This document shows positions 39,180-43,996 of a stretch of DNA of 64,000 bases, in pieces (position 1 is the stretch's first letter; the number at the start of each line of letters is the position of its first letter). A model generated the notes under the pieces. It made no database searches. It had not been told where the DNA came from and was given only the letters and a program-made list of their open reading frames with translations. The translations under genes were made by a program, and so were the position numbers. The stretch is from Candidatus Heimdallarchaeota archaeon (GTDB lineage: Archaea > Asgardarchaeota > Heimdallarchaeia > Heimdallarchaeales > Heimdallarchaeaceae): NCBI GenBank assembly GCA_030603365.1, contig JAUVXV010000001.1, positions 544,001 through 608,000 of the forward strand, read 5' to 3'.

Positions 39180-42170
39180 ATGGTTAGTACTAGTACTGTC
39201 AACTCATTTAATTGTGTCTTTGATAGCCTTGCATTATATAATTTTAAAATGCACAAAGATACTAAATTAGAGTTATCTGAAGTTCCCATAATAGTTATCT
39301 CAGGTGCAAATGGAAGTGGTAAAACACAAATTTTAGAAGCTTTGATTTTAGCTATTGGACATACACCTAGCAGAATAGCTTTAAGTACTTTTAAAGAATT
39401 GATAGGGCCATTTGATAACAACTCGAAAATTACTTTAAAACTAAACAATCCTGTCCTTTCTGACAACAGATTATTTTATAGTTCAGATCCTGACTTGACC
39501 TCATTTATCGATTCTGATTCATTTGAAATTGAAATAAGAATAAATAGTGAAGGATCTGTACAAAGAAGAATCATTTCCATGAAAGGTAACAGAAGAGAAG
39601 TTACCAAAAGGCAGATTCAGAATTTGATGAAGAATATCGGAATTTATGAAGATACAATGTTAAATTTCACTGAAGAAGGTTATTTAGGTTCTTTTGCTGA
39701 AGGTTCCCCTCATAAAAAATTAGATAGCCTACTTGTTGCTACAGGATTGAAAGAAGTTTTTTCAAGCTATGTAGAATCAAAAAAGAAAGTTGAAGAGAAA
39801 GAGAAAGAGTATTCTCCCTTATCTCTACAATATGAACGAGAACTAAATAAGCTAGAAAAACTTAGAGAAAATTTTGACCGAATTCAGAAAAAAAGAGAAT
39901 TAGTTACTCGATATGAACTTGTAGAAAGAGAATTAACTTGGTTTCTAGCTCTTGAAAATCAAGCTCAGCTTGAAAAAGTAAAGAAGCAAATTAATTTTAA
40001 AGATAATGAACTTAATGAATTGGATACTGAAAATAGGAAGATAGAATCCGATTTTGGTATTGTAAAAGAGTCACTAGAAAGACTCAACTCCGATATAGTT
40101 GATGAAAAGTCAAATGTTAGAGATTTTTCTGATAAGAAAAATAGATTGGAAGGTCAAAAGGATGAAAAAATCACAAGAATTAATATTCTTGAAAAGGAGA
40201 TTTCTGATTTAGAGAATAAACTAGAAAACTTTGGTAACATTCAATCAAATGAAGGATTAGAAAGGAAAAGAGTATTACAGAATTCTTTGAGTTCAATTAA
40301 AGAGAGAGAGAAGCAGCTAGATAATGAATTAGAAACTAGTCAAAATGATTTAAAGAGGAAGATTACAGAGGAAATTAAAATAAAAGAACGAATAGCTGAT
40401 AGATCCAATCAATACGGTAATATTTCAGACTATGAACGACGATTGATAAAAGATAGTATCCTATTCAAAGAAAAGATTCAATCATCTAGATTTAAAAAAG
40501 AAATAATAGGACCAATTTATGAAATTATTTCCATAAAACCCGGTTTTGAGGAATACACTACCGTTATTAAAACAGCAATAGGAAGATATCTCTTCGGTTT
40601 TATTGCTACTTCTCATGAAGCTTATTACGAATCTAAAAGATTGTATGACGAACTCTTCCCTTCTTTCAAACCAAATTTTACTGTAGGTAGAGTATTGGAG
40701 GAAGAAAAAGGGCCCAAACCGAATTTTCTAGTACAATTAGCTCTGGAAACCAAACCTTCAGGAATCGTGGATTATGCCATAAATCTTATTGATTCTCCCT
40801 TTCAAGTTAAGATTTATCTAAAGAGATTTGTTAGAACTTTGTTAGCATCATCTTCAATTTCCTCAAATTTACTTACAGATTATGCTAAGAAATATAGGAC
40901 TAATATTCTAACAACTGATAGTAAAAGTTTCTACCTTTCCCAGGAAGCATTCTCTAGACCTCCTAGTGCATATAATATCAAATTAGGTGTTGGATTAGAG
41001 AAATATCAAACCGTTGAGAGGATAAGGGAACAGCTTTATTCTGTTCAATCTGATATAGAAAGGCTAACAGAAGACAAAATTAGAATAAATAGGGAGATTG
41101 TTGATTTTGAAAATGAGAGAAGAGATCTTGAGAATCTACTTAAACCTTGGAATTTAGGTAAAAATGAACTAGAGAACGAATTTCTTAAACTGGAACAACT
41201 TAAGAATACAGCTGAAGCTCAAATTAGATCGGAGCAAATTGGTATTAATAATTTAGGTTCAAACATTACTTCCATATCAAGCAATCTTTTAGAGGTTGAA
41301 ACAGCATTAATAGAAAAAGAACGAACCTATTCGTCAAAGAAGAATGAATACAATCAATTGGATGATCAAATTCAATTATATCGAACTAAACGAGAAAAAA
41401 TAATAAGACAACTAGAGTTTTTGAATGCTGAATTTATTGAGCTAGATGAACAACATCAGATTCTAATTAAGAACGCTCAGGATAAGGGTTCTCCACCTGA
41501 AACTATTAGAGAAAATCAAGAAGATATCTTTTCTGAATACAATCAAATAAAAGGTCAATTAGAACTATTAGAAATTACCCCTGATATTTCTCAAGAAGTT
41601 ATAGAAAAGCAAGAAAATCATGTTAACCTAATCAAGATAGAGGCACAAAAGGCTGAGGAACATCTTAAGAATTTACGAGATGATCTAGATAAAAGAATTT
41701 CCGAATGGGAAGGTGGTCTGCATAATATTGTTACTCATCTGAATAAAATGCTAAACCTTCTATTGAAGGATACTTTTATGAATATCTCAATACAAATCAA
41801 AAATTATAATGATGAAAGAAATGCAGGTTTATACATAGAAGCTGAAACTAAAGGGGATAATAGGAAATATAGACAATTATCCGGAGGAGAAAAAACACTT
41901 CTCGCACAAGCAATAATTTTGGCTTTACATATGATAAACCATTCTCCTATTCATGCTATAGACGAGTTTACTCAAAAACTAGATAGAAAGAACAAAGCTC
42001 TTGCATTTTCTATGGCACTGTTAACATATCGTCTAGCAAAAGAAAGTAGAATCATAACTCCACAGTTCATCCTGATAACTCCTTCCTTAGATGACATAGA
42101 ATTATCAGAAGAATTTTCTCATAAGATCCTAATAGAAAGCAAAGTAAAATCAAAGGGGGTAAAGACATGA
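39180..42170 (+). CDS. SMC5/6-family ATPase
   Basis: Walker A GANGSGKT, coiled coils, hinge (IIGPIYEIISI...IKTAIGRYLFGFIA), LSGGEK, AIDEFTQKLD, switch QFILITP typical of Smc5/6. Confidence 0.85.
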   Translation: MVSTSTVNSFNCVFDSLALYNFKMHKDTKLELSEVPIIVISGANGSGKTQILEALILAIGHTPSRIALSTFKELIGPFDNNSKITLKLNNPVLSDNRLFYSSDPDLTSFIDSDSFEIEIRINSEGSVQRRIISMKGNRREVTKRQIQNLMKNIGIYEDTMLNFTEEGYLGSFAEGSPHKKLDSLLVATGLKEVFSSYVESKKKVEEKEKEYSPLSLQYERELNKLEKLRENFDRIQKKRELVTRYELVERELTWFLALENQAQLEKVKKQINFKDNELNELDTENRKIESDFGIVKESLERLNSDIVDEKSNVRDFSDKKNRLEGQKDEKITRINILEKEISDLENKLENFGNIQSNEGLERKRVLQNSLSSIKEREKQLDNELETSQNDLKRKITEEIKIKERIADRSNQYGNISDYERRLIKDSILFKEKIQSSRFKKEIIGPIYEIISIKPGFEEYTTVIKTAIGRYLFGFIATSHEAYYESKRLYDELFPSFKPNFTVGRVLEEEKGPKPNFLVQLALETKPSGIVDYAINLIDSPFQVKIYLKRFVRTLLASSSISSNLLTDYAKKYRTNILTTDSKSFYLSQEAFSRPPSAYNIKLGVGLEKYQTVERIREQLYSVQSDIERLTEDKIRINREIVDFENERRDLENLLKPWNLGKNELENEFLKLEQLKNTAEAQIRSEQIGINNLGSNITSISSNLLEVETALIEKERTYSSKKNEYNQLDDQIQLYRTKREKIIRQLEFLNAEFIELDEQHQILIKNAQDKGSPPETIRENQEDIFSEYNQIKGQLELLEITPDISQEVIEKQENHVNLIKIEAQKAEEHLKNLRDDLDKRISEWEGGLHNIVTHLNKMLNLLLKDTFMNISIQIKNYNDERNAGLYIEAETKGDNRKYRQLSGGEKTLLAQAIILALHMINHSPIHAIDEFTQKLDRKNKALAFSMALLTYRLAKESRIITPQFILITPSLDDIELSEEFSHKILIESKVKSKGVKT

Positions 42171-42946
42171 CTGATAATGATTTCATAGATAGTGATGTTG
42201 AAACAAACACTGGTTATTTAGAACAAGCTAGTGAATGGTCTGAAAATATTTTTCACCTTCTTTTTGAGTTGAAAAAGAAATATGATAAATCATTAAAAAA
42301 CAAAGTAGTAGTCACCGTAAATGAATCAGAATCGGATAGAGTCAGAGTGTCGGATGCTTTTCTTTATCTCCAAAGTGAAAAGGAGAGTTTGATTGATGCT
42401 GCTCTCTACAAAGATTTTGTTGGAATGAGTGAACTGAGAGAAAAAAGTTTCTTAGATCAAATGCTTTATCCAAACAAGCGTATAGAAAAATTTGCTGAAA
42501 TAGTAAAAAAGCTGTCTACTCCCATAACCTATTTTTCTAGAGTAAATCAGTTCAACTCTGAGGAGTTATTACCAAATCTTGAACCTCAAATTATTGAAAT
42601 TGAATCAAATCAGGAATTGGAAGAATTCATCAAGAAATATCAAAAGTATTTCCTAAAGTTACAGAATAATTTCCTAAGTAAGGGCGATATAATGAGTATT
42701 GAAGAAAGAATAAAAGAGAAAATCATCAATAAGAAATTAAGTAAAAATGAAATTAATAATATTCTAACTACTTTAGAAGCTGAAATCTTATCAAAGATGA
42801 TAAGCGAGAAAAAAGTGTTTGCCATACAAGAGGACGACTTACTTATTTTTACATTGAATGAAGATGACAAAGAAGTAATTGGAGTATCAAGTTCACTTCT
42901 CCTTTCTCCAAAAATACATAAAAATGAAGGTAGAGAAGATGGATGA
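42167..42946 (+). CDS. Putative kleisin (ScpA/Nse4-like)
   Basis: ATGA overlap with the SMC gene; about 260 aa; helical N-terminus; C-terminal ILSKMISEKKVFAIQEDDLLIF resembles the kleisin C-terminal winged helix. Confidence 0.5.
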   Translation: MTDNDFIDSDVETNTGYLEQASEWSENIFHLLFELKKKYDKSLKNKVVVTVNESESDRVRVSDAFLYLQSEKESLIDAALYKDFVGMSELREKSFLDQMLYPNKRIEKFAEIVKKLSTPITYFSRVNQFNSEELLPNLEPQIIEIESNQELEEFIKKYQKYFLKLQNNFLSKGDIMSIEERIKEKIINKKLSKNEINNILTTLEAEILSKMISEKKVFAIQEDDLLIFTLNEDDKEVIGVSSSLLLSPKIHKNEGREDG

Positions 42947-43544
42947 AAACCCTTTCAATGAGGGAGAAGAATCTCAATCGGATTCAATGATCATCAATAT
43001 ACTTCCCCCTTCAATCTCTGATGAAGAAAAGGGACAACTTTTCAAAGAACTTACTACGATACTTTCAAGAAAATGGACAAAAGATAAAACTATTGTCTTT
43101 GGATGTTCAGAACTAGACTTACTTCTAGCTACAAGATTTGATGTTGCTACACTCAGGGAAGCACTAGACGAGTATAAACTATTCGTAAAAGTTATTGGTT
43201 TAGATTTAATAGACTATGATATAGAAGGTGAAAGATGGTATTGCTTGAAGTCAACATACTATGCACCTTCTGAACTGGAACAATCAGAGTTGATTATTCT
43301 TGGTTTAATTATAGCGATGATAGAAGATGAAAATCCCAAACCTATAACTACAGAGAAAATTAAGGAGAAATTAGTGATTCCTGGAAAGATGAAAGAATAT
43401 CTAGTCGAACAAAGCTTGAGAAATCTAGCAAAGTTGGGGTATATTCAGAGAAAAAACAATTCTTGGCAATACAATTATAGAACTCTTATAGAATATGGAT
43501 CTGAAGAAAGACAGAAGATTATAGAGGAGTTCAGGAACATTTGA
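42939..43544 (+). CDS. KITE-family tandem winged-helix protein (Nse1/Nse3/ScpB/MksE-like)
   Basis: LREALDEY..VKVIGLDL...WYCL (WH-A), LEQSELIILGLII...LRNLAKLGYI...YNYRTLIEY (WH-B). ATG 42939 overlaps the previous stop. Confidence 0.7.
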   Translation: MDENPFNEGEESQSDSMIINILPPSISDEEKGQLFKELTTILSRKWTKDKTIVFGCSELDLLLATRFDVATLREALDEYKLFVKVIGLDLIDYDIEGERWYCLKSTYYAPSELEQSELIILGLIIAMIEDENPKPITTEKIKEKLVIPGKMKEYLVEQSLRNLAKLGYIQRKNNSWQYNYRTLIEYGSEERQKIIEEFRNI

Positions 43545-43996
43545 AAGAACAAGAACTTATACAATGCTATATTCGTTGTACTTTCTGTAATGTTAAGGTT
43601 CCTCTTAAGGAAGCTGCCTTGGAAGGATGGGAAGTCTGTCAAAAATGTCAGCTTGTTTTTTGTGTAGAATGTAAAACCTCTGTAGATGAAAATTTGCACT
43701 GCCCTGGTTCTGTTTATACAACAGAACATAAAGCTGCTTTTCAACTATTACCTGTTGAGCAAATTCTTGAAACTGCTACCATGATGGAGCAACCAGTAAA
43801 GAAAGGTCAATATATTTCGAAAATCTTTTTTGATGATGAACGTAGAAAAATAGATCTATTAAGAAAAGAACAAAATAAGAAAGGTCCAATTGATTTTAGC
43901 ATCATCCGATTTAGGGAAGAGCAATGGAAAAAATTCGGTACTGTCCTAGTTAAGAGAAAAGATGGAAAGTTCCTTACTTGGGGTCAGATTGATTAA
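43541..43996 (+). CDS. RING-like Zn-finger protein
   Basis: C13-x2-C16-x16-C33-x2-C36-x4-C41-x2-C44-x9-C54-x8-H63. TTG start overlaps the KITE stop (TTGA) with GAGGAG upstream. Confidence 0.7.
   Translation: MKEQELIQCYIRCTFCNVKVPLKEAALEGWEVCQKCQLVFCVECKTSVDENLHCPGSVYTTEHKAAFQLLPVEQILETATMMEQPVKKGQYISKIFFDDERRKIDLLRKEQNKKGPIDFSIIRFREEQWKKFGTVLVKRKDGKFLTWGQID

Follow-up and report, generated by a model that had tools for sequence, protein, structure and literature searches.

A separate gene for a RING-like zinc protein adjoins the KITE gene in an Asgard SMC5/6-like operon

The window analyzed here is a 64,000-nucleotide stretch of DNA from a Candidatus Heimdallarchaeota archaeon. Analysis of its open reading frames revealed a locus of four co-directional ORFs, which encode an SMC-like protein, a kleisin candidate, a KITE protein and a zinc-finger protein (Table 1). 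The downstream neighbor of the zinc-finger gene in the window is a convergent ABC permease gene. The longest PDB match of the SMC protein was to Smc6, covering residues 16-478 (E 7e-9). This gene is the sole long SMC-like ORF found in the genome, which is 89% complete, and the complex is the only SMC complex found in the window's family (f1), even in a closed one-contig genome. Families f7, f8 and f12 also possess a canonical SMC elsewhere in the genome, and thus the SMC-kleisin-KITE complex in these families is a second one. Neither Pfam nor PDB searches by sequence gave a signal for the kleisin candidate, even with a 15-sequence profile, and its identity is therefore assigned from position alone. 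In all loci it occupies the slot that separates SMC from KITE.

Table 1 Features of the SMC-kleisin-KITE-zinc-finger locus in the window.
Feature	Position	Strand	Description
SMC-family ATPase, 996 aa	39180-42170	+	First operon gene; Pfam SMC_N E 1.3e-25
Kleisin candidate, 259 aa	42167-42946	+	Start (ATG) and SMC stop share 4 nt
Nse1/3-like tandem winged-helix KITE, 201 aa	42939-43544	+	AF2 model and fold matches
GAGGAG Shine-Dalgarno-like motif	43524-43529	+	Within the 3' end of KITE; 11 nt separate it from the TTG
TTGA start/stop overlap	43541-43544	+	TTG, zinc-finger start; TGA (43542-43544), KITE stop
Gene for RING-like zinc protein, 151 aa	43541-43996	+	Conserved family; purifying selection
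N-terminal zinc domain, residues 10-66	43568-43738	+	Ligand conservation, AF2, fold matches
C-terminal domain, residues 96-150	43826-43990	+	Invariant F96 and W129; basic beta-hairpin motif

The predicted structure of the KITE protein (AF2, pLDDT 79) has the tandem winged-helix fold of the Nse1 type. Foldseek ranked Nse1 (7dg2_A, E 6e-5) as the best match, followed by ScpB, MAGE-G1/NSE1 and MukE, which bears out the initial annotation of this gene as a KITE. VIA gave Z-scores of 9.8 over 143 aa for ScpB and 9.5 over 161 aa for Nse1, and the weak Pfam matches were to MksE, SMC_Nse1 and MAGE. The protein ends shortly past the YNYRTLIEY motif, as had been noted, with the C-terminus 15 residues beyond it. 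The presence of only one KITE gene implies a homodimer, as opposed to the Nse1-Nse3 pair.

The start codon of the zinc-finger ORF overlaps the stop codon of the KITE gene. The zinc-finger frame lies at -1 relative to KITE and, as the initial annotation had read it, is open from 43505, 12 codons upstream in the window genome, with TTG as its start and no ATG before M81. From this it had been proposed that a single -1 shift, either programmed or caused by an assembly indel, would fuse the pair into one Nse1-like KITE-RING chain, such that the split would be bypassed or artefactual. Comparison within the genus argues against this. All 20 genomes, which are independent assemblies, carry the identical TTGA overlap, and the zinc-finger frame is closed by stops 2-20 codons upstream; five of the 20 assemblies leave just 2 codons open. 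No slippery heptamer was found at the junction across the 20 genomes, where nothing is conserved besides the TTGA and the GAGGAG motif, the latter being present in all 20. In other genera, the zinc-finger gene has its own ATG or GTG, and overlaps KITE by up to 13 nt or is separated from it by up to 38 nt. Each of the 62 loci has distinct KITE and zinc-finger genes, and none encodes a RING fused to the KITE C-terminus in one chain as in Nse1. The proposed search for fused KITE-RING homologs returned none, either among proteins of 313-2000 aa or among 1.84 billion representatives. We thus regard a frameshift or indel as extremely unlikely. The split is real, and 43541-43996 is a genuine separate gene, for which the GAGGAG motif may have a role in re-initiation.

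The cysteine pattern of this ORF, C13-x2-C16-x16-C33-x2-C36-x4-C41-x2-C44-x9-C54, is exactly as first described. The last ligand had been listed as missing or replaced by H63; alignments support the latter, with H63 as the conserved eighth ligand and C9 and H53 not conserved. Residue conservation accordingly provides the eight Cys/His ligands of a two-zinc domain (C13, C16, C33, C36, C41, C44, C54 and H63; putative metal binding). The 41 cluster representatives carry C, H or D as the second ligand; their eighth is either C (+5) or H (+8 to +11). The divergent members P0071 and P0074 retain ligand pairs 2 and 4 but have jointly lost pairs 1 and 3, which is what a cross-brace predicts. The position after the first ligand, the usual E2 contact, is not conserved as hydrophobic.

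The AF2 model of the zinc domain has a pLDDT of 76-90, and four fold searches were dominated by RING, U-box and ZZ domains (including the CTLH RING). The RNF4 RING was a fold match (Z 5.3, rmsd 2.6 over 58 aa) as well as the best PDB sequence match of the zinc protein, and many ZZ domains appeared in the lists at Z 4-4.5. Z-scores of 4-5.3 are modest, as is usual for domains of ~60 residues, and are not decisive. Taken together, the fold matches and the co-loss of ligands predict a cross-brace topology, in agreement with the earlier description of a stand-alone RING-like zinc protein. They also argue against an IBR domain, in which the two zinc ions are coordinated sequentially, a reading suggested by the x4 spacing and by sub-threshold Pfam matches in 7 of 34 members (best E 0.039). 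RING family models scored below threshold in a few members (zf-RING_UBOX 2e-4, zf-C3HC4 1e-3, zf-RING_4 5e-3), and the sub-threshold Pfam matches spread over IBR, FYVE and B-box besides RING; the zinc protein reached no curated family threshold, Pfam's RING models included. The likeness to the C4C4 RING of p44 that had been suggested found little support, given the scores of C1_4 (E 0.048, 14.4 bits against a threshold of 28.9), TIGR00622 (E 0.005, 17.5 bits against 45.1) and the p44 structures 1z60 (E 0.5) and 5obz_B (Z 3.7). Neither Nse1 nor zf-RING-like matched the finger at Pfam E up to 1 or PDB E up to 10, and Nse1 did not appear among the top 50 fold matches for the finger, an absence that is compatible with distant homology. 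An ESM Atlas feature search with the zinc protein gave no usable match. Complex prediction for KITE, the zinc protein and two zinc ions scored 0.00 in two runs, which were made without controls and carry no weight for or against binding.

The zinc-finger ORF family is conserved in eight or more families within the phylum, with a dN/dS of 0.09-0.17 for the gene, and the feature is far beyond chance. All database members are annotated as 'hypothetical protein'. Some database versions are 133 aa long and begin at an internal ATG, which omits the first CxxC; we take these to be gene-caller start errors and not a shorter isoform. The zinc protein defines a new, unannotated zinc-domain family. Its C-terminal domain, the fold of which is poorly predicted by AF2, is strongly conserved in the KITE-linked members and missing in the finger-only paralogs.

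Linkage of the finger gene to the KITE gene, as initially annotated, holds for 60 of the 62 full-length copies in 400 genomes of the phylum, which lie directly downstream of a KITE gene. Homologs away from SMC/KITE genes had been named as a finding that would refute the initial interpretation; they do occur, as distant finger-only paralogs, which weighs in part against it. One zinc-finger gene (genome G079) adjoins genes for a JAB protein and a small GTPase in place of KITE. The KITE and zinc-finger genes are co-present or co-absent across families, and in one locus (L034) the pair is intact though apart from SMC-kleisin. The operon is single-copy, and its distribution is vertical by family and not patchy within families.

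In four other Asgard families (f6, f7, f8 and f29), the operon continues with genes for a JAB protein and a ThiF-type E1 (Prok-JAB E 5e-9 and 2e-8; ThiF E 1e-38 and 2e-36). Six f7 loci contain a full cluster of JAB, E1, a modifier candidate ending in Gly and an E2-like protein, whilst the f6, f8 and f29 loci contain a partial cluster; in f12, the conjugation genes are upstream and divergently oriented. The modifier candidate terminates in VG, either directly or with a single residue after it, as in f12, where a transglutaminase-like protease is also encoded. It produced weak Atlas leads (<0.9) to the beta-grasp proteins TmoB, Rad60-SLD/ubiquitin and YukD. The E2-like protein has an invariant HPR...C, a weak match to UQ_con and an Atlas E2 score of 0.94. 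Neither of these two proteins reaches a Pfam threshold. The E2-like family was found in 32 of 400 genomes, exclusively in families that possess the zinc finger, and a second, finger-only paralog adjoins the E2-like gene. The JAB, E1 and E2 genes are absent at the locus in f1, f2 and f4. Searches of the window genome (89% complete) recovered neither the dedicated modifier candidate nor the E2-like gene; four UQ_con genes are present. The combination known from archaeal E1/E2/RING/JAB operons is seen, in whole or in part, in f6, f7, f8, f12 and f29 and not in the window. The gene neighborhood in these other families supports the link to a ubiquitin-type system that had been put forward for this locus. 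The contiguity of conjugation genes with the KITE-zinc-finger operon in other Asgard families is new.

The zinc-finger ORF is a separate gene, probably reinitiated at the TTGA, and we consider it rather probable that its product is a fourth, E3-like subunit of an Asgard SMC5/6-like complex. Termination of KITE translation would be followed by reinitiation at the TTGA, so that the zinc protein is translated separately. Its N-terminal part is predicted to form a two-zinc cross-brace domain of the RING/U-box/ZZ type with a C4-C3H ligand set, and the C-terminal domain, conserved in the KITE-linked members, would dock on the KITE/kleisin module. The RING-like domain may then act as an E3-like adaptor for the ubiquitin-like conjugation system, and the zinc protein would correspond in function to the RING fused to KITE in eukaryotic Nse1. 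In the window's family, the protein might use other E2s, such as the products of the four UQ_con genes, or might have kept a structural role only.

The domain could instead be a non-catalytic module of a real SMC-complex subunit that binds in a ZZ/FYVE/B-box-like manner and does not stimulate E2 discharge, with a peptide tail, the modifier, DNA or another subunit as its ligand. The wide last pair (C-x8-H) is ZZ-like, as are many of the fold matches, and the Pfam scatter over FYVE, B-box and IBR points the same way. Furthermore, f1 retains the gene without dedicated conjugation genes, and the actual E3 could be the finger-only paralog that adjoins the E2-like gene. However, in four families the zinc-finger gene is immediately flanked by KITE on one side and JAB-E1 on the other, a catalytic RING, that of RNF4, is the top match by sequence as well as by fold, and a C-P motif is found at ligand 7, as in RINGs. 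We therefore judge a purely binding role to be unlikely, albeit one to be taken seriously. Sets of E1, E2 and JAB genes are typical of bacterial defense operons, and the locus might be a mobile-element defense system, and not a chromosome-maintenance complex, in which a Wadjet/JetABC-like module is combined with a conjugation module similar to type II CBASS Cap2/Cap3 or Bil and the zinc protein is one component. JetB is among the KITE fold matches, and in f7, f8 and f12 this complex is a second one besides the canonical SMC. Eukaryotic Smc5/6 also restricts extrachromosomal DNA (PMC9458440). The single-copy operon with its vertical distribution argues against defense, as does its status as the sole SMC complex found in the window's family, and the loci showed no gene for a JetD-like nuclease. 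We thus consider a defense role improbable, and favor the putative E3-like subunit.

The presence of a RING-like gene in an SMC5/6-like operon, with the conjugation set next to it in relatives, indicates that the E3 arm may pre-date eukaryotes. It is possible that the zinc protein is ancestral to the Nse1 RING. The full scenario, in which it is the direct precursor, the SMC5/6-like complex of the Asgard ancestor ran with a dedicated ubiquitin-like conjugation system (modifier, E1, E2, JAB peptidase and this RING-like E3 docked on the KITE) and eukaryotes later fused the KITE and RING genes, is one that we hold tentatively and rather doubt. If true, the E3 arm of SMC5/6 was inherited from archaea and did not arise in eukaryotes. 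A survey of SMC complex evolution described the Nse1 RING as absent from archaeal KITEs and as a eukaryotic innovation (bioRxiv 10.1101/2024.01.07.573240). Our literature search found no paper on RING-like or ubiquitin-like genes in Asgard SMC operons. An Nse1/3-like KITE gene has a near-obligate RING-like partner in several Asgard families, contiguous in some with a complete candidate cascade, and the long-standing question of the origin of the SMC5/6 ubiquitin/SUMO ligase activities, together with their first targets, is now directly testable with small recombinant proteins.

Among known systems, the Caldiarchaeum subterraneum operon encodes Ub, E1, E2, a small RING finger protein and an Rpn11-like JAB (PMC3082918, PMC5654768). 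The loci of f6, f7, f8, f12 and f29 similarly combine the zinc-finger gene with some or all of the conjugation genes. They differ from that operon in that the genes are joined to an SMC-kleisin-KITE operon and the RING-like protein has a second domain; the window locus differs in lacking the conjugation set altogether. Smc-ScpAB, MukBEF and Wadjet share the gene order of SMC, kleisin and KITE, with overlapping genes, and to our knowledge none of them includes a fourth gene of the RING-like type or has E1/E2/JAB genes attached. The SP-RING SUMO ligase Nse2/Mms21 is a RING-type E3 and a separate SMC5/6 subunit, and was matched by the zinc domain (3htk_C, Z 4.7; 7qcd_C, Z 4.4). However, it coordinates a single zinc and attaches to the coiled coil of Smc5 via a long helical N-terminus, whereas the zinc protein provides eight ligands and is encoded in linkage with KITE. 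The C4C4 RINGs (TFIIH p44/Ssl1, CNOT4) resemble the zinc protein in having all, or nearly all, ligands as Cys and x4 between ligands 4 and 5, and ZZ domains resemble it in the wide final pair ending in His; the context and C-terminal domain of the zinc protein are unrelated to either. Nse1 is the KITE subunit of SMC5/6 that carries a C-terminal RING, and constitutes a MAGE-RING ligase with Nse3. It is one polypeptide, whereas here there are two, plus an extra conserved C-terminal domain, and its RING is C4HC3 compared to C4-C3H with a wide last pair in the zinc protein, with no detectable sequence similarity between them. Common to both are the order of a tandem winged-helix KITE followed by a two-zinc RING-type domain, the central spacing C-x2-C-x4-(C/H)-x2-C, and the setting among SMC5/6-like SMC and kleisin partners.

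Four open reading frames run head to tail on one strand of the window, with successive overlaps of 4, 8 and 4 nt between the SMC, kleisin, KITE and zinc-finger genes. The third gene, named a KITE in the initial annotation, was modeled by AlphaFold2 (AF2) as a tandem winged helix (pLDDT 79). Its top Foldseek match is Nse1 of the Nse1-Nse3-Nse4 complex (7dg2_A, E 6e-5), followed by ScpB, MAGE-G1/NSE1, MukE and JetB. In VIA, 143 residues aligned with ScpB at Z 9.8 and 161 residues with Nse1 at Z 9.5, while sequence signals (MksE, SMC_Nse1, MAGE) were weak. The predicted structure thus supports the original naming and indicates that the third gene encodes a KITE. This fits the literature, where archaeal KITEs resembling Nse1/3 are described as a class encoded together with SMC and kleisin in one operon (bioRxiv 10.1101/2024.01.07.573240). 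Downstream lies a convergent gene for an ABC-type permease, in which a long repeat-rich insert follows the first transmembrane segment.

Coordinates of the operon and of related loci (L, relatives' loci; G000, the window's genome; f, Asgard families of a 400-genome survey)
Feature	Position	Strand	Match
SMC-family ATPase	39180-42170	+	Pfam SMC_N, E 1.3e-25
Kleisin candidate, 259 aa	42167-42946	+	
KITE protein, 201 aa	42939-43544	+	
Zinc protein, 151 aa	43541-43996	+	
ABC-type permease, 963 aa	44027-46918	-	
Eight-gene cluster, f7, labelled 'Ca. Heimdallarchaeota'	L046:3629-11503 (also L050-L054)	co-directional	
Finger-only/PF01841 pairs	L045:580-3913, L057-L059; L046:18105-20000		
Small GTPase/zinc-protein/JAB genes, G079	L064:247-1412		
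Hodarchaeales-type finger proteins, 315-363 aa	L029:8001-8978, L030:8001-8969		
TATA-box-binding-protein-like ORF, f2	L021:9264-9845	opposite to SMC and kleisin	
Conserved ORF of ~280 aa, f4	L023:3510-4352, L024:1-297	same as zinc protein	
E1-like/E2-like genes, G000	C1:330186-331637, C17:22232-27259		

The cysteine pattern described for the fourth gene product is present exactly as claimed. Eight ligands (C13, C16, C33, C36, C41, C44, C54 and H63) emerge from alignments that include both near and remote relatives, while C9 and H53 are not conserved. Among 41 cluster representatives of the family, ligand 2 varies between C, H and D, and ligand 8 is a His at +8 to +11 or a Cys at +5. In the divergent members P0071 and P0074, ligands 1, 2, 5 and 6 are gone as a set and 3, 4, 7 and 8 are retained, a pattern predicted by a cross-brace and not by a sequential arrangement. 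Residues 10-80 were modeled by AF2 with a pLDDT of 76-90, and the matches of four fold searches were nearly all RING, U-box or ZZ domains. These include the RNF4 RING (Z 5.3, rmsd 2.6 over 58/64 residues), the SP-RING of Mms21 (Z 4.7) and p44 (Z 3.7), along with the CTLH and GID RINGs, the Prp19 and CHIP U-boxes, Ring1b, and the p300 and p62 ZZ domains; Z-scores at this modest level are normal for a domain of about 60 residues. RNF4 is also the best PDB sequence match (E 2.7e-5 for a tandem construct, 0.008 for the single domain). No Pfam or NCBIfam model reached threshold, and sub-threshold matches were scattered over RING variants, IBR, FYVE, B-box and the p44 C1_4 domain. By ligand pattern and predicted fold, the domain belongs to the RING-like class of cross-brace domains, within which it forms a new family. 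The RING-like assignment therefore stands at the level of the class, but the Nse1 RING itself never appeared among the Pfam, NCBIfam or PDB matches or in the top 50 rows of the fold searches. The C-terminal half of the protein was poorly modeled and is strongly conserved; it contains a basic hairpin motif, and both F96 and W129 are invariant.

The two genes meet at ATTTGA, where the TTG start of the zinc-finger gene overlaps the TGA stop of KITE, 11 nt downstream of a GAGGAG motif. The zinc-finger frame is -1 relative to KITE and remains open for 12 codons upstream in the window, which favors the original suggestion that a single -1 shift, programmed or an assembly indel, would yield one fused chain. 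Outside the window's own genome, the zinc protein was found in 21 of 24 genomes of the genus. We compared the junctions of 20 fetched loci of the genus, the window's own included, and all 20 share the gene order, the TTGA overlap and the GAGGAG motif. A stop closes the zinc-finger frame 2 to 20 codons upstream (2 codons in five genomes), and no slippery-site-like sequence is conserved across these junctions. In other genera the gene starts at ATG or GTG, and its distance to KITE varies between an overlap of 13 nt and a gap of 38 nt. Searches for a fused protein found none at lengths of 313-2000 aa, none with a profile against 1.84 billion representatives and none among the phylum's 62 genomic copies, whose open frames span 148-203 aa, so that the fused Asgard homologs that had been envisaged did not emerge. 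Against seven orthologs, dN/dS of the zinc-finger gene is 0.09-0.17, with dS near saturation. We reject an indel or frameshift because of the conserved junction with its closed upstream frames, the genes' own starts elsewhere, the absence of fused forms and this dN/dS, and consider a fused or frameshifted chain extremely improbable. The architecture is fairly called "split", the genes being separate throughout. The zinc-finger gene is likely translated by termination-reinitiation at the overlap, a mode that we infer. Several public gene calls of 131-133 aa (P0009, P0011, P0014-P0016) place the start at an internal ATG, leaving out the first CxxC, probably since the TTG start was not considered.

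The family is small: with E up to 1e-3, the 1.84 billion representatives yielded 57 clusters, almost all 140-190 aa long, and members are named only "hypothetical protein" in Heimdallarchaeota, Heimdallarchaeaceae, Asgardarchaeia and Hodarchaeales MAGs. A survey of 400 genomes across the phylum recovered the zinc protein in 70 and its KITE subfamily in 66; both occur in the same families (27/30 genomes of f1, the window's own Heimdallarchaeaceae, and also f2, f4, f6, f7, f8, f12 and f29) and are jointly absent from others (f3, 0/12; f20, 0-2/135). The proposed coupling to KITE holds for 60 of 62 full-length copies, which lie directly downstream on the same strand, but finger-only relatives occur elsewhere. 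Of the two non-adjacent copies, one (G083) is separated from KITE by a contig break, and the one genuine exception (G079) lies beside JAB and small GTPase genes; here an Arf/Sar-like GTPase gene precedes the zinc-protein gene, which faces the JAB gene, and KITE is at the end of another contig. One Asgard contig has SMC-kleisin divergent from an intact KITE-zinc-finger pair. Finger-bearing relatives of 243-363 aa adjoin TPR genes on Hodarchaeales-type contigs, and two degenerate members with a single zinc site, both on short contigs, have no KITE neighbor. In Hodarchaeales-type proteins of 315-363 aa the finger is C-terminal to a helical region and its first ligand pair is C-x2-H; their neighbors are large TPR_MalT genes, not SMC genes. 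A TATA-box-binding-protein-like ORF separates the SMC and kleisin genes in f2, and in f4 an ORF with no assigned function overlaps the 3' end of the zinc-protein gene.

Conjugation genes adjoin the operon in several families. The f7 operon continues on one strand with genes for JAB (Prok-JAB, E 5e-9), a ThiF-type E1 (E 1e-38), a 103-aa protein and a protein of about 250 aa; six loci are complete and three more end at the JAB gene, at contig ends. The conserved 103-aa protein terminates in VG in f7 and in VG plus one residue in f12, making it a candidate ubiquitin-like modifier and precursor, respectively, as judged from sequence. Its Atlas leads are beta-grasp families, all below 0.9. The ~250-aa protein carries HPR...C as an invariant motif and shows a weak UQ_con match and an Atlas score of 0.94 to prokaryotic E2 clusters. 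This E2-like family occurs in 32/400 genomes (f6 2/2, f7 10/12, f8 1/1, f12 19/19), all in zinc-finger-positive families and none in zinc-finger-negative ones. In f8 and f29 the zinc finger is followed by JAB and E1, and in f6 by JAB and a contig end. The 125-131-aa finger-only paralog invariably has a transglutaminase-like (PF01841) protein as its partner. In f12 this pair lies with the modifier candidate, the E2-like gene and E1, immediately upstream of and divergent from the SMC gene; no JAB was seen at this cluster, and the transglutaminase-like protease may therefore be the processing enzyme. The predicted link to the ubiquitin system is thus borne out by gene neighborhood in f6, f7, f8, f12 and f29, but in f1, f2 and f4 the operon consists of four genes only.

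We did not find the dedicated modifier candidate or E2-like gene in the window's genome (89% complete), where other ThiF and UQ_con genes lie near one another at two places and are candidates for general ubiquitin-like systems usable by the zinc protein. Neither a canonical SMC hinge nor ScpB was found in this genome or in two others of the family (G055, G050), and the sole hinge match in a closed genome of the family is the operon's own SMC. Thus, Heimdallarchaeaceae may have no SMC complex other than the one encoded by this SMC5/6-like operon. Genomes of f7, f8 and f12 encode a canonical SMC elsewhere and so have both complexes.

We found no paper reporting the zinc-finger gene or the attached conjugation genes. 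An E3-like role is favored mainly because the conjugation neighborhood is kept, in two arrangements, over class-level distances. A non-catalytic zinc adaptor, in line with the four-gene operons, appears rather unlikely beside these neighborhoods. That the whole cluster is a defense system is improbable, and would be compatible with an E3-like subunit. Descent of the Nse1 RING directly from the zinc protein is possible, though doubtful. Our preferred reading, held with moderate confidence, is that an archaeal SMC5/6-like complex includes the zinc protein as its fourth subunit, RING-like and probably E3-like, and that this subunit is the analog of the RING that eukaryotic Nse1 carries in one chain with its KITE.
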